Shown here: positions 11,939 to 54,855 of the stretch, piece by piece
Numbering within the stretch: the stretch's first letter is position 1
Layout of the letters: each line of letters begins with the position of its first letter
Source: Cladosporium halotolerans
Lineage: Eukaryota
DNA: 64,000 nucleotides
Reading direction: 5' to 3'
NCBI RefSeq assembly: GCF_011745625.1
Contig: NW_027191495.1
Span: 62,001 to 126,000, forward strand
Translations under genes and position numbers: made by a program
Notes under the pieces: model-generated
Told to the model about the DNA's origin: nothing
Database searches by the model: none
Seen by the model: the letters and a program-made list of their open reading frames with translations, nothing else

Positions 11939-13207
11939 ATTACGCTTCATCGAATCCATCATCGGCATCAATAACGTTGAGGGTGTGTTTCCATGCATCA
12001 GCCAAGGAAAAAGCAGCAGCGCTTTCTGGACGACGGCGAGGTGTGCTTGAGGCGGGTGCACAGCGTTGCTTCTTCTTCCAAGGGATCAATGGGGCTGTCT
12101 GCTTTTGGGCGTTTCCGAGTAGTGCGTCGTCTGTCGCCGCCGCCGCTGCGGGTGTGTTTAGTCCCGAGGCAAAATGAAAATGTGACGTCTCGTACGAAAA
12201 GAAACAATATTTGTCGTCTTCATCTCATCACTTCCAGTCAGTTCAACACGGTACATCACGTCTGACGAAGCTGTGATGAATCGAGTCAAATGCATTAGGT
12301 AGGGCCTGGTTGTCCTGCTTGCCCTTGTACAACCACTTGCCCTTGTACCGCCAACCCCATTGCTCTACCCAAGTGACGAAACTGCCCGCGTCTTCTATCT
12401 ACCCTCGTAGCAGGATGACGTCCCCAACATCCCATCAAGCCCAATCACGCGGCCACCAGCACCAACGCCAACTCACGATGCAAAAAACCAAATCATCGTC
12501 TCAAGTGGACTGCCGAATTAGTGAACTTGACACATTGACATGACTTGACATCCTTTCAATGAGGTTCATAAATGTGCGCGGGCCCCTTGCTTTGCCTTTT
12601 CGCATATAATAACTGGTTTTCTGGGGTCCTAATCGCTCATTCCATAGTGACTCGTGAGACTTCTGAACGAAGCTGAGGGCTACTTCGCATTTCGCCTATC
12701 ATGAGGTAGCTGAGTTTGCCCACGCATTGACTCCATTAAAGGTGACTTATTACGGCAAGTATTGATTGCAGATTTGCGTGCACTACGCAATGCAGCACAT
12801 CATTAGATGTACCTACGAGGAGTTCACCTCAATTGAGCCGAGGACTGCATGGCCACTTCGAATGGCCAAGGTCAATGCAGGCACCTTGAGCAGGGCAAAA
12901 GCGACGATTGGAAGCCTCAAAATGTGACAGATCGTTCTGAGACAGATCACAGCTGGTCACTGAATCAAAGCCCTCGCAGCACAGATAGATGTTACACGGT
13001 CAGGCTTAGGCTAATGAGATCACAATTCGTTCTCGTAGAGAGGAGCTTGTCATTCCGACATTGAGCAGCCTAAGGTAGTTACATACAAAGTCGTACAAAA
13101 TCCACAGACTCCATCGAGCCGTCCTTTTCGCCCCTTCGGCGTCCATTCTCATACGCGCTGGTTCGCTATCAACAAACAAGAACCCATCAGCTTCCGCAAA
13201 GAGCAAT

Positions 13208-13504
13208 CTACGACTGCTGCTTCTTGCTCATCTCCTCAGCCTGCTGCCTGTCCTTGGCGAGCGCGGCCTCCTGGTCGGAGATCTTCTTCTTCAGCGCGGC
13301 CAGCTTCTCGGCCTCCTGCTTCCGCACGTACATGGCCTCGTCGGCGGCCTCGCGCTTGGTGAAGGCGTCGCTGGAGGCGGCGCCGCCGCTGCGGGGCGCA
13401 CCGGTGTCGCCGGCGGCCATACGCTGGGTGATGGCGGAGAAGCTGCGGGTGGATGTGGGGAGGGTGGCGCGGGGGATGGCGCGGGTTGCGAGGCGGAGAG
13501 ACAT
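13208..13504 (-). CDS. INH1: Mitochondrial F1Fo-ATPase inhibitor (IATP family)
   Basis: Mitochondrial presequence, GDTGAPRSGG..DAFTKREAADEAMYVRKQEAEKLAALK. Confidence 0.9.
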   Translation of the reverse strand: MSLRLATRAIPRATLPTSTRSFSAITQRMAAGDTGAPRSGGAASSDAFTKREAADEAMYVRKQEAEKLAALKKKISDQEAALAKDRQQAEEMSKKQQS

Positions 13505-13731
13505 TGTGGTGGTTTGGGTGGTGTGAGGTGGTTATCTGGAGGTGGTGGGTTAGTCGGATGTTGACTTTTGAAGGCTGTAGGTGGTCGGCTTACTTGAGGG
13601 GATGTGGTGAGTATGGATAAGAGGTGATGTGTTGTTTGTTTTTTGGAAGATGAGAATAGATAGAAGGACTGAAGTGAGATGGAGAGGTAGCTGTACCTGA
13701 GAGCTGGAGCTGGCCGCCTGGCTCGGGCGAG

Positions 13732-13766
13732 TGACGTACCTTCGGCGGAAGTCCGGGGCTACGTCA
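13732..13766. promoter_or_regulatory. Pair of inverted CRE/ATF-like sites (TGACGTA ... TACGTCA) in the INH1/hexokinase divergent promoter
   Basis: TGACGTA at 13732-13738 and TACGTCA at 13760-13766; function inferred. Confidence 0.4.
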
Positions 13767-14341
13767 ATGCGACGGATTTGTTTGAGCGAGCGTTGAGTTA
13801 CGAGCGCGGGCAGCGTGGAGGGCTCTGACCACGACAACCACCATCACTCGCCGTGCACAACAAACACCGACACGCTTGGTAAGTGAGCTGTTTACTTCAC
13901 TTCATTCTGCCGTACCTGCCTGCCATTTTCTCCGTCAACCTCACCTGCATCGATGCCGGGCGCCGCCTGCCGTGCTCGTTGAGGGGCATGGCGGGGTCCG
14001 CCTGCCGATATTTCATGGCATCTTCGCGAGCGAGCGGTATGCGTTGGTGGCATGCAGCCACTCGGCCTCGCTTGCACCAGGAACCCGCGCCATTGCTGAT
14101 CCCTCATCCCTGCAATATCAATCCCTACAACAACTTTGTTGCGCCCGCCCGTGTCACCTGCACGCTGCTTGAGTGATTGCTTACGGCAGCGCTCGCTCAA
14201 CTTGTAGTCACAAGCTTCCACTAACCCCCGGCTTCACTCAGTGATCCTTCATTTCACACACCTTCACACCTTGTCCCAACTTCACCGGGACATTGAACCG
14301 CAAACCTTCACACTCCCTACACACTCCGAACGACCGTCAAG

Positions 14342-15927
14342 ATGGTGGGCTTGGGACCGAAGAAGGCTCCGAGCCGGAAGGGCTCCATGGCCGACCTCCC
14401 GCACGACCTGATGCAGGAGATCAAGAGGCTGGAGGACCTGTTCGTTGTTGACACCAACAAGCTGAAGGCCATCAGCGACCACTTCGTCTCTGAGCTCGAG
14501 AAGGGTCTCACCAAGGAGGGCGGTGACATCCCTATGAACCCCACCTGGTGCATGGGCTTCCCCACTGGCTACGAGACTGGTACCTTCCTTGCCCTTGACA
14601 TGGGCGGCACCAACCTCCGTGTCTGTGAGATCAACCTGCCGGAGGAGAAGGGCGAGTTCGACATCATCCAGTCCAAGTACCGCATGCCTGAGGAGCTCAA
14701 GACCGGCAACGCCGACGAGCTGTGGGGCTACATTGCCGACTGCCTCCAGCAGTTCATCGAGTACCACCACGAGGGCGAGAAGCTCGACAAGCTTCCCCTC
14801 GGCTTCACCTTCTCTTACCCGGCCACCCAGGAGTACATCGACCACGGTGTCCTCCAGCGCTGGACGAAGGGCTTCGACATTGACGGTGTTGAAGGCAAGG
14901 ATGTCGTCCCGCCGTTCGAGAAGGCTCTTGAGGAGCGCGGCGTGCCCATCAAGCTTACTGCCCTGATCAACGACACCACCGGAACCATGATTGCTAGTGC
15001 CTACACTGATTCCGAGATGAGGATGGGTTGTATCTTCGGCACCGGCTGCAACGCCGCCTACATGGAGACTTGCGGCAACATCCCCAAGCTCGCTCACATG
15101 GGCCTGAACCCCGACGACCAGATGGCCATTAACTGCGAGTGGGGCGCTTTCGATAACGAGCACAAGATCCTTCCCCGCACCCAGTATGATGTGATCATCG
15201 ACAAGGAGTCTCCCCGTCCTGGCCAGCAGACCTTCGAGAAGATGATCGCCGGTCTCTACCTCGGCGAGCTTTTCCGTCTTGTCCTCGTCGACCTGCACGA
15301 GCAGCCTCAGGTCAAGTTCTTCGAGGGTGCCGACATCAGCCCGCTCAAGAAGCCCTACTCTCTCGACGCCTCGTTCCTCTCTGACATCGAGAACGACCCG
15401 TACGAGAACTTGCAGGAGACTCACGACATCTTCGTCAACCAGATGGGTATCAAGCCCACCAGGCCCGAGCTCGAGCTGCTCCGCCGCCTGGCTGAGGTCA
15501 TTGGTACTCGCGCCGCCAGACTTAGTGCGTGTGGTGTCGCTGCCATCTGCAAGAAGAAGAACCTCAAGACTGCCCACGTCGGTGCCGATGGTTCGGTGTT
15601 TAACAAGGTAAGCACTCTCCCAGAGAACCTTCACCAGCAATCAACCGTACTAATAACCCCCTCCAGTACCCCCACTTCAAGGCCCGCGGCGCGCAAGCCC
15701 TCAAGGAGATCCTCGACTGGGAGACCGGCCGCGACGGCAAGCCGCTGGGCAAGGGCCACGACCCCGTCGAGATCCTGCCCGCCGAGGACGGCTCTGGTGT
15801 CGGCGCCGCGCTCATCGCCGCCCTCACCCTCAAGCGCGTCCAGGAGGGCCACCACGCCGGCATCCGCGACCCGCAGGGCATGCTCAAGGGCACCGCCGCC
15901 GCCAAGCCCGCCTCCAACCAGGTTTAG
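14342..15927 (+). CDS. HXK1: Hexokinase; exons 14342-15607, 15667-15927
   Basis: LALDMGGTNLRV, LGFTFSYP, INDTTGT, GTGCN, ADGS, AEDGSGVGAA motifs. Confidence 0.96.
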
Positions 15928-16924
15928 AGGGCCTCTTTGGCACGCGCGGACGATGTCGACAATGTCACAGTCTAGGTGGCTTTGCTCTGTGCCTTTGGGT
16001 GTGGAGTATATCGATGTTGGAACTGGCTGAGCGGGATTATGGAAGCTCTGGCTGTTTTTTTGGTATGAAGCGACGTTGCCTCAGTTCATGATGCACATTG
16101 CAGGCATGATTGCACCCGGGAAGTGGGTGGCTTGCTGAGAGGATTATGAATAAGACACATCCAAAATGAATATAAATGATCACACCACGAGGGATATTTC
16201 TTCTCTGTGCCACGTGGAATCAGAAATGCCACGCGCGATTGCTGATTGCCCTAATAATTAACTGGCCAAACGACTTTATTTCAGAGGGAAAAGTACTTTC
16301 CGGCAATTTCTTCAGTGACACATATGAGCGCTACGGTGGAGATGAGCGCTATCGAACGTCTCATCAGACGTACTCGCCTTCATTCCAGGCGGTGGAGATT
16401 GGGCGTTGCGTTTGGAAGAGCGAAACGTCCGGCTCATCACTTAAGTCCGCAAGTCGAACTGGGTGGCGCTCAAATGATCAACGGTCGTCACATCGACATC
16501 AGGATTCAGCTTGGCTCCATTTGCACATTATAGCAGTCACGGTTACTACCTTAGCGTGCGTGCAAACGAGAGGTGATAATCTGAAAGCAGAGCGACATCG
16601 GAACAAGCGGGGAAAAAGAGCCTTTTTGGGAATTTCGCTTTCCTTTCTGGGTATATACACAGCGAGCAAGGCCCCCATGTCCTGCCATCGTCGATACAAC
16701 ATCGAATATGCGTTAAACACAGCAGGAACAGTAACGCCGGCGAAGAGTGTGTGCTTCGCATGATAAGGACAAATAGAAATAATAAAAATCAAAGCCCGCT
16801 AAAAACACTCATAATGTCAACAGTCGTGCCGGGTGTGCATTCCTTCCCCGGCAGCGGTGGCAGCAGTCTGGTAGTTGCTGAAATCCTTTTCTTCTTCTCT
16901 TTCAGAACGAATGGATGAAAGAGC

Positions 16925-43386: not shown

Positions 43387-44337
43387 GGTTAGGGCTGGAA
43401 GGTTGGACGAGGGGAAGCTCCCGCTGCTGACATGCGGCTCTTCCTGCGCCTGTGGCCGTTGGTTCCAATGGAGCTTATATCCAGCCTTCGCACGCGGCGA
43501 CAGAGTGTAGAGCTGCGTATGTCGGGATCATCGCTCGCCGCAGGCCGAGTCGCGTGAGGGTGTGAAGATGGGAGGAGAACGTTAGGCTTGAGAAAACGAA
43601 GGAAGGGCCACACGAGTCGCCGTCAGCCACAACACACGACGGTTGCCGCGCGTGCGCCCCTCCACAGCTCTTTTTTGGGTGCGAGGAATAGGAGACGGCC
43701 AGCTGCCTTACCAGACTTGGAAGGGCAGAGGCAGGTTGGCAGCTGGGCCCAATCTCCGAGGCTGTGGGGGAGGCGGATGGCGAAACTTTGATTGATTCAG
43801 GTCCCGCGCCGTTGTCTGCTTTGCCGCAGTGCCCTAAGCGACACCCATGGCGCAGCCGGTGGTGGTACAAGGACGCGGGTCCAATCTGGGAGAATACATG
43901 TGCTTGCATGCAAATTAATGAGACACATGCATGTCGCGACCGGAGCTATCTCCTGTTCTCGTCGGGTGTTTGCATAGCTACAATCAGTATCCTGAACGGC
44001 GTTATCAAACCGTAGGCTGACACGGTATATGAGAACATTGCTAAATCGAGGTACCAGTCCTGTCACGCCGCCAGCTAACAGCTTCGCCATAGCGGTGCGA
44101 TCTGCGCTGGGGCCGACAAGTGTCATGTGTCATGTGTCAAGGAGTAGAACAACGGCCGAAAGATGCGATTCAAACAATTCGAGGGAACAGCAGAATCCAT
44201 AGCGAAACGAACGCCTGACAACCAGAACTGCCCTACAATGCACGCTCCTCCGATGACTCGTCAAACCGCAAAACAACCTTAAAATCCACCCTTACATCGT
44301 ATTCATGATCTCATATCCAACTCTTCTCCGACATCAT

Positions 44338-45237
44338 CTAGTGCCCAGCCAGCCAGCCAAACTTGTGCATCCGGATCCTCGGCACAATGCCAATCAGCAG
44401 GATGACAGCCGCGACGATCACAGCCCACAGCTGGATCTGCAGCACATTCTTGTTGAAGTCCGTCTGCGTCGCCGCGGCCACGGTCGCCAGCATGGTCAAC
44501 AGGATCACATAGCCGCCGACGCGGTGGTACTTGTACAGCTTCTTGGCGTTCTCCACGCCGCCGTACAGCTGCGGCACGAAGTACTGCGTGATGCCGACGA
44601 CGGCCTGGATGATGGTGAGGATGTACGTGATCAGGCCGAGGATGGCGTGCGGCGATTCGAAGTGCGTGCCGTTGTGCGCGAACTTGTTGTACTCGATCAC
44701 GACCAGGCCGGCGATGGCGCTGAGCAGCGCGACGTCGTTGAGCGCCGCGTGCGTGTAGGTGCCTTCCTGCTTTTGCTTTGCGGTGTGCGTGGGTTGGAGG
44801 ACAAGGACGCCTTGGATGAAGAAGAGGAGGGCGGCGGAGTTGAGGAGCTGTGGTCGTCAGTGTTAGTGGTATTGCTCATCTGGTTTCTCTGAATTGACTT
44901 GAACATACCGGATGCGCCGAGAATAGAATCAAGTCATGGCTGAAGACGCTGCCCCATACGATGGCCGCAAGCTGGGCTCTTGGTCAGCGCTACACTCATC
45001 TAGCAATGTCCTGGTGCACTCACAATCCAGGCGCCGGCCTGCGCGACGACTCCCGTGCCTTCATCCATAGTTAGTACTCGGCGCTCTTCACTGTCAGAGC
45101 TTGAGGCACAGCAACTCACCAATAATGAAGTTGTGGTACAGCGGCTTCCCGTCTTGCTGACTTGCATCACCTCTGTTTCCGAGCAAAGGTTCCTCCTCGC
45201 TGGTACCGGGCTGTCGGTGCGCTTCTTGGTCTGCCAT
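44338..45237 (-). CDS. Cytochrome b561-family membrane protein, several short exons
   Basis: MADQE..EEEPLLG start; ILVLQPT, YTHAALN, HFESPHAILG, LYKYHRVGGY heme-His helices. Confidence 0.85.
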
Positions 45238-45789
45238 TGTGGATGATCACGACGTCTTCCGAAATTCGCTCTGAATCAACACGAGACGCGACAAGAACAC
45301 GTCTCAAGCAGTGAACACGAAACGCTCTAACAAAGCACCGGATAGCGGATGACCTCTACCTTAACTATGATGCCTTCGACCGCTGGGAGCTGCGGGGACC
45401 CAACTGCCACTAGTGCATTATGTAACCTTCGCGCGGAATGGCGCTTGCAGGGATCAGTGGATATTGCGCCTATCACGGGTCTCCGCTTTGTAATTGAAGA
45501 GATCAGATGATGGAAATCATTGATCGGTGTGACGATTAGATCGTCGAGAAAGCATGGTACGATTCAACAGAGGAAGCGAACAGCTGATTTGGATGCAGTC
45601 TGTACGGGGACATTCATGGTACCATACGAAATTCGAGTTGCTAATCGCGCAGCCAAAATTTGTACGAAGCAAGCGAAGCTCTCGAGCTAAGAGTATGATA
45701 CGCAGAGCCGAAGGAATGCTTTGGGGGCCAGTCGATCGGGAAAGCCCTGAGCAAAAGCAAAAGATGAAGCTCATCTCATGCGAGAGGAA

Positions 45790-45881
45790 CTCCTCACAGT
45801 GGGCTCGAACCACTAACCTTCCGGTATGCTGAGACTCGAAGTCGTAACAGCCGAACGCGCTACCGGTTGCGCCAGCGAGGA
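45790..45881 (-). tRNA. tRNA-Asn(GTT) with 19-nt intron (45826-45844)
   Basis: Manual cloverleaf: acceptor TCCTCGC/GTGAGGA, D stem GCGC/GCGC, anticodon stem TTCGG/CCGGA with CT-GTT-A, T arm AGTGG-TTCGAGC-CCACT, discriminator G; intron at canonical 37/38; T4 runs downstream. Confidence 0.93.
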
Positions 45882-46534
45882 TTGATGATCTTCACGCGCT
45901 CTAAATTGAATATATCGCTCAAACAAAAGTCCAGCCTTTCAATCGCCCTGACCGCCCTCCGCCGCGATCTCCATTGGGTGTATCAAGCTTTGATGGTTTG
46001 TAGTTCCAAGATAAAGCATCTCGGATGGAACGATACTCTTCCAGACCACGAGATGGCGTCTCTGCGTTTGCAACAAGGCTCAGTCTAGCCATTGACGACC
46101 AAGACAAACTCGCTGTGATTTTGTGCCTTAAGTTCTAGATCTCGTTGAAGATGATATGAAGATTTTAGGGGCAGCGTGCTCCATGATACAGTATGTTTTG
46201 CCTAGCACTTGGGAATCGCTTTAGTCCCTCGTCAATGTTTGTCTGCATATGCCGGCGCCACCGGTCAAGGGCTTTGATTGGATCGTAGCGTGGAGCTGAA
46301 GGCGAAGTCGTGAACACAACATGCTGCAGGTGACTCCCCTGAGCTTACTGCACCAGCATCACATGGTCGTGGGGCAGGATACCTGCGAAGCTGCTCGACT
46401 GCGCCCATTGTCTGTCATATACCCTGCTTTGGTGCACTGCTAAGGCACGAGCATTGTGTATCTTTGCTCATCCGCCTTGCTGAGGGCGGCGACGCGCACA
46501 CCGCCACTGGCCTCCTGGCGCTCTCACGGACGTG

Positions 46535-48242
46535 ATGACATCGAGAGGTGACGCCAATTGGGAACCACCCGTACAAGCGTTCATGACATGGCTGCAAAAA
46601 CCACGAGTGACTGGGACTCAAGATGCCAGCCTTGGGCTTGAAGACTTTGTACCAATCAGCGAGATAACGAGACACCTACGCCGATATGGCCTGTTGAGGG
46701 AGCTTTTTTCCTATCTCCTTCCCCAAGAAGACGTTCGCGAAGTCGGAAGCATGATACTCAGCAACTACACCATCGTCTTTGCCATACTCGTCCACATCGG
46801 ACGGCCCAGGCAAATCGTCAACTTTCTTCCGCACGACATGCTCTGCGACACTAAACTACCTTTCGAACATCGACCAAGCCAGTTTCCTCTGGACCCATTT
46901 GACGACGATCGCAATTCCTTCTTTGGCCACTTTCAAGCAGTGCAGCCACGATTCTGCCCCAAAAATCTGATCAGGGGTACCTTGAACGTCAGAGACGAGC
47001 AGCGCATGCCCTTCCTGGAGAAAAGCTTCATAGGTCGAGGGGCAAGTGCAAAAGTGTACAAGGTCAAGGTCCATGCTGACTACGACCACATGAAGAAAGA
47101 AGATGGCTCGGTATGATGATATTTGTCCTCAAAAGCATGGGCTGACTTCGAATCCATTGACCAAGAACAGTCCACACCAAGCAAGGAACACATATGGTAT
47201 GCCCTCAAAGCTTACGAGGGCCGTGACAGCAAGAGATACCATGATGCTGAGACCAAGGCGTTCAAGAAGATCCATCGCACTGGTCTAAAGGAATGGCATA
47301 TCGTTGGCTACCATTGTTGCTATGTGCATAGGGGTGCGTACTATGCAATTTTCGAGTTAGCGGACATGGGCACGCTTGAGGAGTACATGAGAATCAACCC
47401 GCCTCCGTCGACGGATGCCGATGTCGCTGCTTTCTGGGCAAGCTTTTTGCCTATGATTGAAGCTATTGTCGAGTTGCACGACATGAATGAATGCGACGAT
47501 GATGAAGATGACGAAGACAGCAATGGCGACAATGACCGCTTGATGCTCTGGTCACGCGATAGGTAATTTAGCACCACCGTGATCTGGGTCAGCAGGAAAG
47601 GACTGATGATTGTGTAGGTTCCAATGCATCCATCAAGACATCAAGCCAAGCAACATTCTGGTTCAGACCAAGCAAAACGCTGCAAATATTTTCGACTGTT
47701 CAATAGGCCTTGCAGATCTCGGTCTGAGCAGCTTACGTAGAATCGATTCGGGCATACCTTTTCGAGATAACTTTGGCACCAAAACGTACGGTGAGTAGAA
47801 AATGGTCTTGCTCGTTGCAGCATACCGAACTGACATACAAGGGGCGCCGGAATGTTTTCGGAAAGACAAAGTCGACGATCGAAGAAACATTAGGGTGACC
47901 CCGAAGGTTGATGTGTGGTCTTTCTTGGCTGTGCTCAGCGAAATATGCGTCTGGGTCACTTATGGGTACAATGGTGCTCATGGCGTTCAGAATTATCGCG
48001 ATAGGCGGACTGAGTTCAACGCAAAAACTGCCCGAGGGTCTGATTGCTTCCACCGCGGCGGCGAGGAGTCTACAGCTGTCGCAGATGAGCACGAGCGCAT
48101 TGCTAATGAGCCAGGATCCGATCACATTACTCGGCAACTTGTTCAGCTTCTGCCAAACGTGTTACGTCAAAATCCAAAGGACAGGCCGTCAGCAACAGTC
48201 TTACGGCAGCATTTTACAGGCATCCTCGCTCGCAGCAAATAG
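46535..48242 (+). CDS. Atypical fungal Ser/Thr protein kinase, about 513 aa; exons 46535-47110, 47171-47562, 47618-47790, 47842-48242
   Basis: GRGASAKVYKV, YALK, HQDIKPSNIL, ADLG, TYGAPE (across intron), KVDVWS; exon lengths sum to 1542 nt in frame; N-terminal FAILVHIG..LCDTKLPF domain. Confidence 0.85.
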
Positions 48243-48550
48243 ATGCCACAGATGGGGGCGATAGAGGTAATGTCACCGAGCATTTCGTTCCAAGAGAGTC
48301 CGGCGGCACCGGAGTGGAAGAGGCCTTTGCGACAAGATGGAAGCTACGTGCTAGAAGGCGAGAGAAGAAAGCTCCTCAAATAGCAGCGCGTGGAACATGC
48401 CAAAGCTAGAATGGGATGTTGGTCTGTCTCATATGATTCTACTGTAGCCTGTAGCTGGTTTTGTCAGTCTACAAAGATCTTCTACCGATCACGGTCAGTC
48501 ATTGCCCCAGACAGTCGATCCGCGAGAGCGTTTCTAGACTGATCGATGAA

Positions 48551-50418
48551 TCACGTGATCGACGATTGGTTGGTAGTTTTCGCCCGGCCTTCTTCTTGCT
48601 CACGAGACTTTCTCCGATAGTTATGCCAAAGAACCAAACAGTACCAAGCGAAGAGTGTAGCCACGAGCAGCGGTAAAGCGACAGCAAGGAACAGCTCCAG
48701 GGCTTTGACGTTCACCACCTCCGAGTGATCTGGATAATGGACGATGGGCGTGCTCATGAGAGTCTGTACCATGATCAATACCTGAAATATCAGGGCTTTG
48801 CTCAAAAATGCTCACCGAAACGAATGTTCCTGGAAGGAAGAACAATGTCACCCACGTGATGATGCGCATGTGCGAGGCCTCCTCGATGGTCTTCTGGGAG
48901 ATCCTTGCTGTCAATTCGGTCATCTCTGCCATGTTACCCGTGGACATCGCTACTGCAATGCTGTGTTGAGAATTGTCCCACTGTAACATGCTTTGAAGCT
49001 GCAGAGTGTCAGTACATTTGGCTGTGGGCACCATTGCCGATTCCATCAAGTATGCTTTACCAAAACTTTTCGATCTGCCAGAATTTGCAAGAGCATTTGC
49101 AAACGGCTCTCTTGCGTCGTCAACTCTGTGATGGTGATGTTGATGTAGCGTTGAAAGTCGCCCAGGGCGGAAGGCGAGAGCTTTGCGCACTCAAGCTCTG
49201 TGGTAAGAACACGCGCCACGTTAGTGTACAGGGCGCAGAGCTCTTTGATGACAGACATATTCCCTCGTAAGACAAGCAGAGCCTCGTTCGCCTTTTCTTC
49301 CATAAAATGAACCTCTTGGAGGTGGCGGAATGAAAAACGTGACCTTGGTTTCCCATTGCCACCAGTCGAGTTTTGATTAAGGGATTCTGTCAGAGTTCCT
49401 CTCGTGAGCCATTGTGCTTTTTCTTCCATGAAGTTGATGTACCATCTCCAATTCTGACCGGCCCATGCACAAATCACGAGGTGAGTACGGAGCGTCGACT
49501 CGAAGGAGTTGCTGGCATCACCATCGGCTGGTGACTGGTATAAACCATTTTCACGACAATCGGCCCTGACTCTGTGCTTGAGAAGCGCATTGGCTTTGAC
49601 GATAAGCCAGACACTCCGTTCGGACTCGACGTCAAAAGCGTGATACGTAACGGTAGGCCGCAAAGCCCAAGGCCAAAATCGGGCAATTTCTCCAGATTGG
49701 TCAACTGGCTCCGCTGATCGTAGAATATGGCAAAGGCGTATCTCACGCCCGCTCCGACCCAATTTGGGGATGGCGAGCATCCTGTCATCATTGCTCAAAG
49801 TGAGAGCAGACCTGAAACCAGTGTATTGAAAATCTTTTGGGTTCTCGGAGACCCCAAAAACAAGCAGAAAGTCAAGTATTTCTGGCATGACCTGATGCCA
49901 TGTCAGCATATGCATCAAGACATTATGCTCCACATTCAGTCTGTCTCTCGAGCTCGGCGCTGAAATGAACCTGTGGTGGGCGGATCAGCCATCTTGTTGG
50001 AGTGGTGACTTGAGTGAAGTTCTGCTTACATAAACCGGCACAGAGGGTCTTCCACATAAGAAGATGCATCGCACATATCAACTTTGCTCAGCTCGCTTTT
50101 GCTTCTCAAGCGCGCTGCAAGACCTTCTGACCTGACATTAGAAGTTTGTCGAGCTGTTTGCTCATCAAGAGGGGTCGTACTTGCACCGTTGCGGAATTCC
50201 AAAAAGTCCACAGTGCTGCTTGGGCCAAAAAGCCTCGATCTGTTGATTTCTGTTTGGCGCAGGTACTCGTTCAGCTGATACGAGTAGATGTTCCTCGATA
50301 TCAGATTTGTTGGGTAGTCTTCGGCGCGATCCATCGAGGCTTTGAATCGATCTAGTAGTGGAGTACAATCGCCATTGCTGCCGATATCCGGGGAAGACAG
50401 GCGCTCTGCGGTAGGCAT
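48551..50418 (-). CDS. Fungal CorA-like protein with two C-terminal TM helices, about 564 aa; exons 50418-50030, 49970-49061, 48998-48816, 48763-48551
   Basis: Splicing gives 1695 nt in frame; DPLCRFMFISAPSSR, LTWHQVMPEILDFLLVFG, long coiled stalk, MRIITWVTLFFLPGTFVSTLMST TM1, LFLAVALPLLVATLFAWY TM2. Confidence 0.82.
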
Positions 50419-50802
50419 GTCGAGTGCCAGCGCAAGATATGCATACGCCTTAGAGCAGAGAGTGAGGAGGGGATTGCAGGATTATGAGAATTTACTACTT
50501 GTGCAACCTGCAGCTTACCCAGCCTCAACCTGCGTCGCTCACTCGACCCGACTGAAGCGCCTGCGACACGCAGAAAGGTCACCCAATTGGAGACCGACGT
50601 GCATCTCGAGCTGAGACAGCACATCGTGAGGCAGGCGCCCTGATGTAAAGTAGTGCTGCTTCTGATATACTCGTGACTGGCTGAACGCCGCCCCAGGCTG
50701 GACGCCACCAAAATCATTCCATTTCTTGCGAGAGACAGCAACGCACTTTGAAAATCACCCTAGCATTCTTGCTACTAGTGTACTTGTTTCGTGAAATCAA
50801 TT

Positions 50803-51142
50803 TCAATCCTCCCAGTCAAATTCATCGCGAGTTCTCAGCCTCTGACTAAGTATAAGGTTTTTGTCCTCCTGGTTCTGTAAGCAAGTCTCTCTTTAGTTCA
50901 CATATATGCACCTAAGGAATTTCTCACCTCTGTCAGAGCACGAGGGACAAAAAACTGGAACACATCAAGGCCTTCCTATTGCGCCTCAGCATTTTCCCCA
51001 CATACTTTTGTCTTGGACGACATACCCGGACCTTGAACGCGTCCTCCGCGCACGCTGGAAAAAGCTGGAAGAGCACTTTTTGGACTAGTTCCTTTGTGAG
51101 GCGATAGCTATTGATCTCTTGCCTGACATTTGCGGTGCTCAT
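50803..51142 (-). CDS. Small 76-78 aa protein, three exons (51142-51026, 50975-50928, 50874 or 50868-50803)
   Basis: Two phase-0 introns with GTATGT/GTGAGA donors, branch points and YAG acceptors join MSTANVRQEINSYRLTKELVQKVLFQLFPACAEDAFKVR-EGLDVFQFFVPRALTE-(NQ)EDKNLILSQRLRTRDEFDWED*. Confidence 0.7.
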
Positions 51143-52078
51143 ACTTCGCGAATTCTGTTCATTTGAAGGTACTGGCCTTCAATTGATACGTCGGATTGAC
51201 AAGGTAGCCAGATAAAAGGAACCTGACTATCGTGAGACGATCAATTTTGAGTAGCAGTTCCTCAGCCGTTCCGAGCTATCGTGCGCGTGCGCTGGCTGGC
51301 CGATACCGTACCTATGCAGGGCGCTGGTGATTACGGCACTCATACATTGCCTGATTGGTGGGCTCACTCCACGGCTGCAGGAGCTGTATGCAGGAGGTGC
51401 ACGATCTAGGCGACTTGCAGTGGCCAGCGCCGTGGCACGAGAGTAGAAGACGCTCATCCGACTTGTGAAAGTTGGCATCCGTAAAAGGATCGACACCAGA
51501 TTCATGTGGCACTGGCGCAACTTGTCATCCAGTGACGGGAGCTTCAAAACTTGCTCGTGCAAGGTAACATGCAGTTGCTGCAGCTGGGAACATGTCGTGT
51601 CGGCACCAAGTGGCATCTGCGAGGGTCCATTGAGCCGTGCTGTATCATCAGCTATCATCAACTTTATCGCAGTAGCAACGTCTAGCCACCGGTATCTACC
51701 GACTTGCAATGCTGTGGCGTTATTGGCGCTGAGTACCTTCGAAAGCGATGCTTGTTTTATGATACTACTCTATTGATGCAGAGTTTCTTCAGGTTGTAAG
51801 CTACTCAGCTAACGGAGAAGTGGAAGACCGTGGCAAGATCCAAGCACAGATCGACAGCTTTGGTGGGGCTGGCGCCAGCGACCTCGCGTTCAACTTCCGG
51901 GTGTGTAGTACACGAGAAGAGGACAACGACAACACCGTACATGCGGCCAAATCTTGAGAGCAACATTTACCATCATCTTTCTCAGCATCCCAAAAAACCC
52001 ACGAGGGGTGTTCTCTGTTGAACGGAGGGTCTCAGCTGAACATCACATAAATCATCCCAATACACTAAAACCGCCACC

Positions 52079-52414
52079 ATGGAAGAACTCCGCACCCTTT
52101 CCGAATACCTCAAGGCGAGTAACGCCGACGGAACTGTCATCCTAGAAGCGACCGCGACATGGTGCTCTCAATGTAAAGCCATCGCGCCGTTCGTCGAGAA
52201 GCTCATCAAGCAGTTTCCCGAGGCCAAATTCTACAAGTACGACACGGATTCTGCTGGCGATATTGCGCAGGAACTCGGTGTCAGCCAGATGCCAGTCTTT
52301 ACGATCTTCAACGACGGCGATCTCGAAGACACAGTCACCGGCGCGAGAGGCAAGGCTCTGGAGGATGCGATTCGGGCGGTTTACAAGGGGAAGGTGGAGG
52401 AGGCCGCGGAGTAA
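52079..52414 (+). CDS. Thioredoxin (atypical WCSQC active site)
   Basis: 111 aa; ATWCSQCKAIAP, IAQELGVSQMPVF cis-Pro loop. Confidence 0.88.
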   Translation: MEELRTLSEYLKASNADGTVILEATATWCSQCKAIAPFVEKLIKQFPEAKFYKYDTDSAGDIAQELGVSQMPVFTIFNDGDLEDTVTGARGKALEDAIRAVYKGKVEEAAE

Positions 52415-52698
52415 TGGCATTGACGTATTGGAGGGCGATTCACTATTTATGACCTGTACAAGTTGCGCACCTCGCGACCATAATGATCCACGCTCACATT
52501 ACCGATCAAATTGATGTTCTCTTGCCCCATGTTGCACCATGATGTGCCCATACCAACTGACCTGGCATCCCTCCCGAACGAGTCTCCCCGCGTCGTCATT
52601 GTTGCCCCACTTCACATGCAAGGGTCCAAGACCTCAGCTTGCTCCAGATCGTCACGTTCACAACAAAACGTACAATACACTTTCTGCCGCACATCAAC

Positions 52699-53889
52699 AT
52701 GTCGGAACCCGAAATTGCAACGAAGGCGCCCGAAAGCGATCTCGCTGAGCGCAGCGCCATCCCTGGCGATAGCGCTGTTGATCAAGGACCGAGTCTCGGC
52801 GTAAGTGGAATCACCAAAATGATGTCAACAGAGCGAATGCTGAGAGTGTCGACAGGAACACTGTGTGACAGATAGACCGACTCGTGAGTATGAGACTTGT
52901 CTGAACCTTCCAAGGCTTTGCTAAAACTTCTACAGCGTCTGGCGCAACACCGACTGGTGTAAGACCTAGACCCCAGCCTGGATACGAACGACCCAGATCG
53001 CTAACCACCTGCCGATAGCAAATCACCAAATTCGATGACATCGAGGCATACGTGACCAAGCCAGCAGACTACCCTCATGCACCTAGCAAGCTCCTGCTCC
53101 TCCTGACCGGAGGCACCGGAGTGCATAGCACGAACAACCAACTGCAAGCAGACAAATATGCCTCCGAGGGCTTCCTCGTAGTCATGCCCGACCAGTACGC
53201 CTGCCATCGGACCCCTCTGCTTAGCCCAAAACTAACATCCTCTCAGATTCGCCGGCGACCCCTCAACAAACACAACCTCCACAGCCCCCACCAACTCCTC
53301 CCCCTCCCTCATCGAGCAAGTAAAGCTCGGCATCGCCAGCGTCGCGAAATCCTTCACGATCGACATGTGGCTTGCGCGCCACACGCCGGAGAAAGTCCTC
53401 CCGCTGCTGCACCGCGTGCTTGCAGCGATCAAGGAAGAGTACGCGGACGCGGTCGCGAACGGCGGCGGCGTCTACGCCGCGGGATACTGCTTCGGCGCCA
53501 AGTACGTGCTGCTGCTTGGCAGCGAGCTGCACCAGGACGTCGTGCAGGGCCAGCGCGCGCCGGAGACGCAAGCAGAGGAGGGCATGGTGACGCAGGGGCC
53601 TGCGATCAAGTGTAGTGCGATCGCGCATGGGATTCTTGGGAAGGCGGATTTGGAGGGTGTGAAGGTGCCGACGAGTGTGGTGGCTGTGGAGGGCGATCCG
53701 TTGTTCCCAGATGAGGTGAGGGATGCGGGAAAGAAGGATATGGAGGAGAGAGGGCTAGAACATGAGCTGCAGGTGTACCCTGGCGTGCCGCATGGGTTTG
53801 CTGTGACGGGAAATTATGATGATCAGGGGATTGCGCAGGCACAGAAGGAGGCGTTCGCGCAGATGCTGGCTTGGTTGAAGGCGCATTGA
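52699..53889 (+). CDS. Dienelactone hydrolase family protein, multi-exon with micro-exons
   Basis: EHCVTDRP, YVTKPADYPH, QADKYASEGFLVVMPDQF, GYCFGAK nucleophile, YPGVPHGFA. Confidence 0.88.
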
Positions 53890-54053
53890 GTGTGCATTTT
53901 ACTCTGGCCTGGACTTCCGACTGCGGTCATCTGGCTTGCTACATGATACCACGATCGACTGCAATTGACATGAAATCTTGAACGCGTGCTTTTGGTTCAT
54001 CTATGCTGGGTATCATTTATCACTCTTTCATGTCCTCGTCTCGTCTCGCGGCC

Positions 54054-54855
54054 TCATATCAGCTCAATGTCGCCTCTTTCCACGCCTTCTCTGACGTCTC
54101 TCCACCTCAGCACCCAAATATCTCCCCTGTGAAGCTCTACGACTCCGACACCTTGCTCTCCCTGGATCTCCACCTGCCCTGCGTCTCTCAGTATCCGACA
54201 GAACACAGCCGTGTCTTCGTCCGGTTTGTCAACCATACTGATTCCACCAGCGGTATCGTCCAACTTCCGCAATCCTTGAGGAAAAGAAGAGAGGAACGCT
54301 GTGTGGTAATGCGAAGACAGGAGGTGTTGGTGGTGGTGTAAGTACTGCGATTCGAGATGTGAGAGATTGGCAGGTGACGTTTGTGACATCGCGAGGGTGT
54401 GATGCGGGTAAGCGTCGATCTGTAGGACAAGATGTCAGCAAATGCTAGCATACAATACAACTTGCAAGTTCCCTGGTACCTTCGCTATGCGCGCTCGTAA
54501 GAGAGAGCGCACGAGGAACTTGAACCGCTCCAGTTCCGTCTGCACGATGACCAGCTTGAAGTTCGCCGAAGGGTCGGCCGTCGCGTTCATCATCTCGATT
54601 GCTTCTATCTTTTGAGGATCCACAATCAGCACACGCTTCGGTAGGGCTCTCCAGGAGTAATATTCTATAGGGATGACGCACTTGTGTCGCTATTCTCTGC
54701 ATGATCCTATCCACCAACTCGCCCGGGTAGGGCAGCAGCTCTGGCGCCGTGCGCTCGTTGACCCATGCTCGCGTGAGCGCTTGCAGGTCGAGTGTCGATT
54801 GAGGGATGGATGGGCCGCCAGAGACGGAGGCGAGGATGTCGGCTATGTCAGCCAT
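54054..54855 (-). CDS. SLD5: GINS complex subunit Sld5, 3 exons
   Basis: LTRAWVNERTAPELLPYP, QTELERFKFLVRSLLRARIAK, MVDKPDEDTAVFCR, GDIWVLRW. Confidence 0.92.

Follow-up and report, generated by a model that had tools for sequence, protein, structure and literature searches.

We analyzed a 64,000-nucleotide (nt) stretch of the Cladosporium halotolerans genome (contig NW_027191495.1, positions 62,001 to 126,000, hereafter the window), in which three spliced genes lie between a tRNA gene and a thioredoxin open reading frame (ORF). They encode a protein kinase, a CorA-like membrane protein, and a micro-protein (Table 1), and the trio looks like an undescribed functional module. An initial annotation, made from the sequence alone, had recognized the three genes at these positions and with these lengths and had remarked that they are fragmented in the ORF track; bacterial-style ORF calling of the region agreed with it and returned fragments only. 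The kinase gene has three introns, all GT..AG, of 60, 55, and 51 nt. Those of the CorA-like gene measure 59, 62, and 52 nt, the last length being backed by the alignment of homologues and by RNA joints, and the micro-gene has two GT..AG introns of 50 and 59 nt.

The kinase and CorA-like genes are convergent. The stop codon of the former ends at 48242 and that of the latter starts at 48553, leaving 308 bp between them, which matches the convergent 564-aa membrane protein and the distance of about 300 bp given by the initial annotation. The micro-gene lies directly upstream of the CorA-like gene on the same strand; its product had been announced as 76–78 aa long and has 76 residues in our model, the introns of which are confirmed by RNA. 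The GC content of the trio region (0.48–0.52) is below that of the flanks. The codon usage of the three genes is also flatter than that of their neighbors, as had been proposed, with a GC content at third codon positions (GC3) of 0.56–0.57 and an effective number of codons (ENC) of 55–58, against 0.70–0.90 and 33–46 in three flanking ORFs.

Table 1. Coordinates of the three module genes and of the two features that flank them (positions in the window).
Feature	Coordinates	Strand	Remarks
Kinase gene, 513 aa	46535-47110, 47171-47562, 47618-47790, 47842-48242 (stop included)	plus	frames joined at GT..AG introns
CorA-like gene, 564 aa	50418-50030, 49970-49061, 48998-48816, 48763-48551	minus	frames joined at GT..AG introns
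Micro-protein gene, 76 aa	51142-51026, 50975-50928, 50868-50803 (stop included)	minus	
tRNA-Thr(TGT)	45790-45881	minus	left flank
Thioredoxin ORF	52040-52414	plus	right flank; PF00085, E 4e-20

Linkage of the kinase and CorA-like genes in related loci

The fungal context was taken from metagenome contigs. Scanning them with the CorA-like alignment yielded 80 loci with up to 10 kb of flank, which we collapsed at 90% nucleotide identity or more into 48 non-redundant groups. For the kinase genes, the window kinase and 18 representatives of its family served as tblastn queries against these loci; a kinase was counted as adjacent when at least 100 residues of its N-terminal domain were matched within 3 kb of the CorA-like gene. 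Linkage was scored one way, from the CorA-like loci to the kinase.

A kinase of the same family, N-terminal domain included, was present in 41 of the 80 loci. By the 3-kb criterion, 28 of the 48 groups had an adjacent kinase; when both flanks were required to measure 4 kb or more, 20 groups remained and 19 of them had one. The groups without it were mostly short of flank on the relevant side. Between the two genes lay 159 to 2234 bp (median 1069 bp). The loci also provided an internal control: across the 544 kb of the representatives, a single further kinase-family cluster, weak and non-adjacent, was found. The initial annotation had suggested that similar kinase and CorA-like proteins occur adjacent or fused in other ascomycetes: the adjacency is real and very strong in the well-flanked groups, and no fusion was found among 150 kinase representatives, their best E-value against the CorA-like protein being 0.31.

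The two genes were arranged in tandem in 22 cases, the CorA-like gene preceding the kinase gene, and divergently in four; one kinase gene was located upstream on the same strand and one pair was convergent (locus L070; L-numbers designate metagenome loci and P-numbers database protein homologues). The usual order is micro-protein gene, CorA-like gene, kinase gene. Since the genes are adjacent in all four layouts, they have been repeatedly rearranged without being separated. Outside the trio, no family of flank ORFs was common to more than 3 of 25 long non-redundant loci, which indicates that ordinary synteny has wholly decayed, and this comparison of the flanks revealed neither a transposon or other mobile gene nor a phosphatase gene conserved beside the module.

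The two families also diverged in parallel. Distances between the large exons of the CorA-like genes and between the N-terminal exons of the kinases were correlated over 26 pairs (Mantel r = 0.71, with 0 of 2000 permutations as high), and the nearest neighbor was the same for both proteins in 12 of the 26. The co-inherited module that had been postulated is therefore found again in this one-way metagenome scan, where the trio occurs together far beyond chance.

The micro-protein as third member

The unspliced 69-aa ORF recovered from a collection of 5.8 billion proteins only its own copy, 96% identical, and exon A of the micro-protein had no match in the ESM Atlas. Compared with the 80 loci by tblastn, the spliced 76-aa model gave matches that were individually weak (best E-value 0.004) and that recurred on the strand of the CorA-like gene, 300–1100 nt upstream of it. 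Of the 42 groups with at least 600 nt upstream, 25 had their single best match in the 1.5 kb that precede the CorA-like gene, in the orientation of that gene, this zone being about 10% of the search space (binomial P = 5e-15).

In the family alignment, exon 1 is characterized by a YRL motif and an aromatic/Leu-rich stretch, and exon 2 by about 16 residues with the core [YF]-x-F-[WK]-[IV]-P-R-x-L-T; the tail is basic, then acidic, and often ends in W-E-D. Conserved Thr, Ser, and Tyr positions are located in these motifs. We found the exon-2 pattern in the upstream zone of 33 of 43 groups. Its enrichment was 513-fold, with 33 occurrences in 63,075 upstream residues for one in 980,399 residues elsewhere in the same loci, a figure to be read with the knowledge that the pattern was composed after the tblastn matches had been seen. 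In 31 of the 33 cases a GTN codon came directly after the pattern, where the window has its splice donor, suggesting that the intron of the micro-gene is conserved too.

We looked by eye for the micro-protein motifs at the N-termini of P0001, P0003, and P0005, which are complete, and did not see them there; the micro-gene is thus a separate gene, and the idea that it could be a missed exon of the CorA-like gene is ruled out. The micro-protein has neither a transmembrane (TM) segment nor a signal-like start, and contains 14 acidic and 11 basic residues by hand count. Judged from its sequence, it founds a new small family. The initial annotation had counted it as part of the module, and the recurrent upstream matches together with the motif enrichment make it a conserved third member.

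The CorA-like membrane protein

The exon at 48998–48816 encodes the first TM helix (TM1) with an LPGTF motif, and the exon at 48763–48551 encodes TM2 and the stop codon. A Pfam scan of four exon translations of the window gave no match to PF01544. With the 303-aa exon we recovered from the protein database five longer homologues at 33–39% identity, including proteins from Rhexocercosporidium, Fusarium subglutinans, and Geoglossum umbratile. A precomputed match to PF26616 exists for each of the five, one of which UniRef lists as a CorA-like transporter domain-containing protein. Our local Pfam scan left PF26616 unreported even for these five, and it is by full-length homology that we assign the membrane protein to this fungal CorA-like family: it aligns with P0001 over residues 24–547 (E 5e-92, 33% identity). 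Among the five homologues, PF01544 was detected in P0003 only, at 23 bits, below the gathering cut-off of 27 bits. We also built a 134-row alignment of P0001, P0003, P0005, the window exons, and the exon translations of the related loci.

An AlphaFold2 model of P0001 (pLDDT 81, pTM 0.68) was compared with the PDB using Foldseek, which returned 55 matches at E ≤ 0.001. All listed rows were CorA proteins at a probability of 1.00, aligned over the whole chain with a TMt of about 0.5 (4i0u, 3jcf, and 8tmc from T. maritima; 8zak from C. jejuni). The fold was assigned on the model of this homologue, and the window protein is tied to it by the full-length alignment. From this modeling, the membrane protein has the CorA fold, with a predicted cytosolic alpha/beta domain, a long stalk helix, and two C-terminal TM helices. 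A sequence search of the PDB with the CorA-like profile gave no match, and a pattern-limited scan of 185,579 prokaryote genomes with the CorA-like alignment returned 11 pattern matches and no relative.

The GMN signature was absent from the window protein and from P0001, P0003, and P0005, which read LPGTF(V/I)S and then T-[LI]-M-S-T, the residues that align with the GMN position being inferred. Given this result and that of the PF01544 scan, the protein should not be called a Mg2+ channel. A variable loop separates the alpha/beta domain from the stalk; it corresponds to the low-confidence residues 307–361 of P0001, is Ser/Thr-rich by eye, and is much shorter in the window copy. The identity to the window protein reached 57–61% for the nearest non-conspecific relative and was 33–45% for most others.

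One of the homologues, P0002 from Fusarium subglutinans (1019 aa), contains two tandem CorA-like units, with matches over residues 85–288 and 383–532 and again over 632–1019. Either two tandem gene copies were annotated as one, or the protein is genuinely double.

The kinase family

The window kinase consists of an N-terminal helical domain (residues 1 to ~165) followed by a protein-kinase domain. A search with its first exon (192 aa), which has no Pfam match, returned 535 cluster representatives at E ≤ 0.001, including 174 at E ≤ 1e-10. When 29 relatives were compared with Pfam, Pkinase was detected right after the N-terminal region in 21, in 20 of them above the cut-off and with up to 75.6 bits. 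Among relatives longer than 650 aa, it was present in 18 of 20, one also having ankyrin repeats. The per-exon Pkinase (PF00069) scores of the window were below the cut-off (27.2 vs 31.7 bits). The window kinase matches P0021 nearly end to end, with 35% identity over residues 8–512, and is distant by sequence from the solved kinases, the nearest being NEK7 (E 1.5e-8).

The initial annotation had described a kinase with intact catalytic motifs, and we recovered all of these residues in the spliced model: the Gly-rich loop, Lys205, the alphaC Glu, Asp330 of HQD, the Asn, Asp356 of DLG, and APE. The family has a signature of its own, in which HQD(I/V)KPxN replaces HRD and ADLG replaces DFG. Of the 21 aligned members, window included, 17–19 retain the Lys, Glu, Asp, Asn, and APE positions, so that the members of this family look, from their sequences, like active kinases.

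The AlphaFold2 model of the N-terminal domain has a pLDDT of 90 and a pTM of 0.87. Foldseek gave no match with this model. In the VIA structure search, residues 75–142 (nt 46757–46960) matched many SAM domains (Tric1, tankyrase, SARM1, Ste11, Ste50, and ASK3) over 57–64 residues, with Z from 7.1 to 4.0 and a root mean square deviation of 1.9–3 Å, which is suggestive of a SAM-like core.

Most relatives are 650–1120 aa long and possess a C-terminal region beyond the kinase domain. VWA-type Pfam matches were obtained in 16 of 22 C-terminal fragments, all of them sub-threshold (the best at 23.3 bits for a threshold of 23.8), and the C-terminal region of the L007 kinase contains DDSLS, a DxSxS motif; a sequence search of the PDB with this fragment gave no match. 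By sequence comparison, the C-terminus of most relatives is probably a divergent vWA domain. No vWA-like sequence was present after the window kinase or anywhere in the 64-kb window.

In P0006 (476 aa, from JGI), a Cys/His-rich region similar to C2H2 zinc fingers stands ahead of the N-terminal domain of the kinase family (residues 279–455). This protein could be either a further domain combination or a gene-call artefact on a 3.7-kb contig.

Transcription and splicing

Public runs were searched with positions 46300–51400; 20 rows matched all or part of this interval and 15 shared at least half of its words. Four runs (X11, X16, X19, and X20) were aligned to positions 43500–54500. X19 and X20 share few words with the window and were taken only for the splice joints that they directly show. 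The X16 contigs are spliced and thus derive from RNA.

In one X16 contig (46362–48404), kinase introns 1 and 2 are removed. X16 contigs also lack all three modeled introns of the CorA-like gene, the 52-nt one being spliced out in X20 as well, and reveal a fourth intron of 54 nt (50180–50127), in-frame and inside the first coding exon. Its removal drops 18 codons and gives a CorA-like product of 546 aa instead of 564. Both introns of the micro-gene are spliced in X16 (depth 35) and in the RNA run X19 (depth 8), and its transcript extends from 51177 down to at least 50687. All three genes of the module are therefore transcribed and spliced. In X19 the micro-gene contig stops at 50687, in X16 the CorA-like contig starts at 50529, and the X16 depths of the two genes are ~30 and ~7, respectively; from this gap and these unequal depths, the micro-gene and the CorA-like gene look like separate transcripts.

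The 2.3-kb metagenome contig L001 carries, at 74–2011, a full-length CorA-like ORF free of the three introns that other loci have there, and is probably mRNA-derived. It includes 142 nt upstream of the CorA-like match, which would fit a CorA-like transcript distinct from that of the micro-gene.

Kinase intron 3 (47791–47841) is kept in the sole contig covering it, the X16 contig from which introns 1 and 2 are removed, and translation of the retained form would stop shortly ahead of the APE motif. The retention may be regulated, or the contig may simply stem from unspliced RNA. Two observations speak for the intron: X11 and X16 share a 1-nt deletion within it, at 47820, and it falls at the same place as odd insertions between TY and G-APE in the annotated relatives P0028, P0040, and P0086. 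The spliced form alone keeps the homology with P0021 up to the end of the kinase domain.

The window copy and its divergence from the public runs

L070 is the related locus closest to the window, with a CorA-like large exon 57–61% identical to that of the window and a kinase 45–52% identical. It is convergent like the window, has an upstream micro-gene, and shows no similarity to the window outside the trio. As L070 shares the convergent layout yet keeps the C-terminal region of the kinase, the window is, from this comparison of sequences, a derived form, in which the kinase gene would have been inverted to the convergent position before the linker and the vWA tail were lost.

An X11 DNA contig of 8900 nt is collinear with 45856–54500, with 215 differences and 6 gaps (2.5%). 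X16 differs from the window by ~1.6% in the kinase and ~1.4% in the CorA-like gene, for 4.0% and 4.6% in two flanking transcripts. The initial annotation had proposed a role in allorecognition, defense, or regulated cell death and had suggested looking for divergent alleles and presence/absence polymorphism. There was no sign of hypervariable alleles or of presence/absence polymorphism in the four runs compared; since the module is less divergent than its flanks, and collinear in X11, we found no support for allorecognition, and nothing in our data points to defense or cell death.

Neighboring genes

The thioredoxin ORF has the active site WCSQC, the usual one being WCGPC. An X16 contig of depth 128 is unspliced over 51299–52436, suggesting a long 5' leader of the thioredoxin gene or an overlapping upstream transcript. 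At the other end, the depth of the X11 contig jumps to ~134 over tRNA-Thr (45702–46068), where numerous contigs break off with loose ends; such a pattern is expected of a tRNA gene present in several copies and in different contexts. A plus-strand gene at 52700–54480 has at least four short introns (joints 52800/52856, 52883/52936, 52958/53019, and 53194/53247) and is highly expressed in X16; its last large ORF (53236–53889) is of the dienelactone-hydrolase type by eye. The minus-strand ORF 44338–44856, whose codon bias is very strong (GC3 0.90, ENC 33), encodes several hydrophobic helices with conserved His residues and resembles, by eye, a membrane protein of the cytochrome b561/ferric-reductase type.

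Discussion

Comparison with known systems

The membrane protein of the trio shares with the CorA/Mrs2/Alr1/ZntB superfamily (PF01544) the whole-chain fold and an LP-x-TF stretch in TM1. However, the CorA-like proteins of the trio are ~200 residues longer, with a variable disordered loop, and lack the GMN motif. They score under the PF01544 threshold, have a fungal Pfam family of their own (PF26616), and are paired with a kinase and a micro-protein.

In type III CRISPR immunity, membrane effectors of the CorA family are encoded beside cas genes and activated by a nucleotide second messenger. The trio could be analogous to these systems in having a CorA-fold protein as the membrane output of a signaling system, controlled via its cytosolic domain. 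In contrast, its partner is a eukaryotic-type protein kinase and its genes are spliced eukaryotic genes, and we found no nucleotide-signal sensor domain in the Pfam scans and no conserved flank family. Of the link with these effectors drawn in the initial annotation, the shared fold was confirmed but nothing beyond it, and the pattern-limited prokaryote scan supplied no relative.

The bacterial "ternary" conflict systems, which associate vWA, Ser/Thr kinase, and PP2C proteins, are linked multi-gene modules with a membrane-acting or other effector. By analogy, the trio may likewise combine vWA and protein kinase domains in a linked multi-gene module. The trio, in contrast, would have both domains in a single protein, following a SAM-like domain; it pairs this protein with a CorA-fold protein and a micro-protein, shows no conserved phosphatase gene, and consists of eukaryotic, intron-bearing genes.

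In fungi, het-Q1/het-Q2 and NWD2/HET-S are linked cell-death pairs in which one product controls a membrane-targeting partner. Like the trio, they are small, tightly linked, lineage-specific gene sets of filamentous ascomycetes. Unlike them, the trio is devoid of gasdermin, HeLo, NLR, protease, and amyloid motif, its controller would be a kinase, and it shows no allelic hypervariability in the four runs.

Another point of comparison is mimpvic32 of Morchella importuna, a CorA-domain gene which is reported as one of two vegetative-incompatibility candidates obtained by bulk segregant analysis (PMC8940278). The same source describes a protein of 765–773 aa that matches PF01544, encoded by a gene with 8 introns, and a partner candidate, mimpvic33, without domain and 13 genes away (PMC8940278). 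This is an ascomycete protein with a CorA-like domain implicated in a phenotype other than transport. A full-text literature search revealed no published description of the kinase/CorA-like pairing or of the trio. By term search, a survey of fungal NLR effector domains (PMC9815663) mentions neither CorA nor vWA, and the review PMC12881547 has 0 occurrences of CorA.

Proposed function of the module

It is very probable that the trio is a true functional unit. We are inclined, with moderate confidence, to consider that its persistence as adjacent genes in many distantly related ascomycete contigs makes it a conserved functional module of filamentous ascomycetes.

Tentatively, the kinase would regulate the CorA-fold pore, with the micro-protein as a regulator. 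The CorA-fold protein would form an oligomeric membrane pore or transporter with altered ion selectivity and be the output, or the membrane-bound partner, of the module. Its cognate Ser/Thr kinase would control it by phosphorylation, a natural target being the Ser/Thr-rich variable loop. The SAM-like domain could dock or oligomerize the kinase, and the vWA domain, where present, could bind a metal-dependent ligand. The acidic-tailed micro-protein would then be a small regulatory subunit, acting as an inhibitor or adaptor or by binding to the vWA metal site. Possibly, although we remain doubtful, the role of the whole would be a conditional ion flux in stress, defense, or cell death and not a routine supply of cations. 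More speculatively, the trio could be a three-component conflict or immune-like system widespread in Pezizomycotina, in which a SAM-like/kinase/vWA sensor would open a CorA-fold pore that depolarizes or kills the cell, the micro-protein being the safety catch or the trigger.

Several points weigh against the interpretation of the trio as a module with a kinase-controlled pore. The Z-scores of the SAM comparison are below 8 for a helical domain and may reflect a mere common helix arrangement, and the vWA assignment depends on Pfam scores below threshold. The kinase of the window has no vWA tail, and the retained intron 3 in the sole transcript contig would truncate it; possible explanations are a partial decay of this copy or its control through intron retention. 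One well-flanked group (L024/L029) is without a kinase: in L029, no ORF of at least 110 aa occurs at 12000–16500, i.e., for ~4.5 kb downstream of the CorA-like gene, so that the place expected for the kinase may have degenerated or been repeat-mutated. Finally, the loci come from metagenomes, and shared descent may explain part of the linkage and of the Mantel correlation, although the decay of all other synteny argues against it as the main cause.

Alternative interpretations

In the first alternative, which we regard as rather unlikely, the module would serve regulated cation homeostasis without any conflict role, as a non-GMN divalent-cation transporter tuned by a cation-sensing kinase with a vWA metal site. 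The CorA fold is indeed that of Mg2+/Co2+/Ni2+/Zn2+ transporters, the vWA region of the relatives includes the DxSxS metal-site motif, the low divergence of the module relative to its flanks in X16 fits purifying selection, and all three genes are expressed without any known challenge. However, GMN, the motif that defines the Mg2+-selective CorA, Mrs2, and Alr1 channels, is absent, the families are very divergent (as illustrated by the identities of the CorA-like proteins), the weak codon bias suggests low expression, and the module sits in unrelated genomic contexts. Moreover, the kinase of the window, if functional, works without the proposed vWA sensor.

The wiring could also be reversed, the CorA-like protein being a membrane sensor or scaffold that activates the kinase, which would in turn signal to other targets, and the micro-protein a substrate of the kinase or an adaptor. 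We consider this unlikely. It would account for the same adjacency and co-divergence as kinase control of the pore, SAM-like and vWA-like interaction domains are typical of signaling hubs, and the conserved Thr, Ser, and Tyr positions of the micro-protein would suit a substrate. The observations agree with either direction of signaling. The CorA-like proteins, with their large conserved cytosolic domain and a variable loop that is often Ser/Thr-rich, would suit the part of a substrate equally well.

It is very improbable that the locus is a het-like allorecognition locus, causing death on hyphal fusion, or a selfish toxin-antidote locus acting as a drive or addiction element. A small linked set of fast-evolving, lineage-specific families in a varying genomic context could evoke such loci, and the Morchella candidate mimpvic32 brings a CorA-domain gene close to vegetative incompatibility (PMC8940278). 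Against this, a Pfam scan detected no HET, NACHT, or other known incompatibility domain in the three genes, the module is collinear in the 2.5%-divergent X11 contig and less divergent than its flanks in X16, and no transposon or mobile gene is conserved beside it. The Morchella association is, in addition, incomplete by its authors' own account (PMC8940278).

That the three genes are chance neighbors without functional link is barely credible: fungal genomes are not organized in operons and the window by itself offers merely three adjacent genes, but the adjacency of the kinase in nearly all well-flanked groups, with one weak non-adjacent cluster as background, the enrichment of the micro-protein motif, and the persistence of adjacency through four layouts all contradict it.

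Significance

Conserved clusters of non-metabolic genes are rare in eukaryotes. The adjacency of the trio through deep divergence, rearrangements, and the loss of other synteny implies an obligate functional partnership. Our analysis thus gives a context to PF26616, a curated family with no known function, to a large family of fungal kinases (the 535 cluster representatives that match the N-terminal domain), and to a family of micro-proteins seen in no annotated homologue here. It also offers a testable hypothesis, the control by a kinase of a non-GMN CorA-fold pore. If the role of the module is in ion homeostasis, it would represent a new way of regulating CorA-type transport; if it is in defense or regulated cell death, it would be an NLR-independent branch of fungal innate immunity. 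If the trio is a conflict system, it would be a eukaryotic counterpart of the bacterial defense modules with CorA effectors or with vWA and kinase, evolved independently of NLRs.

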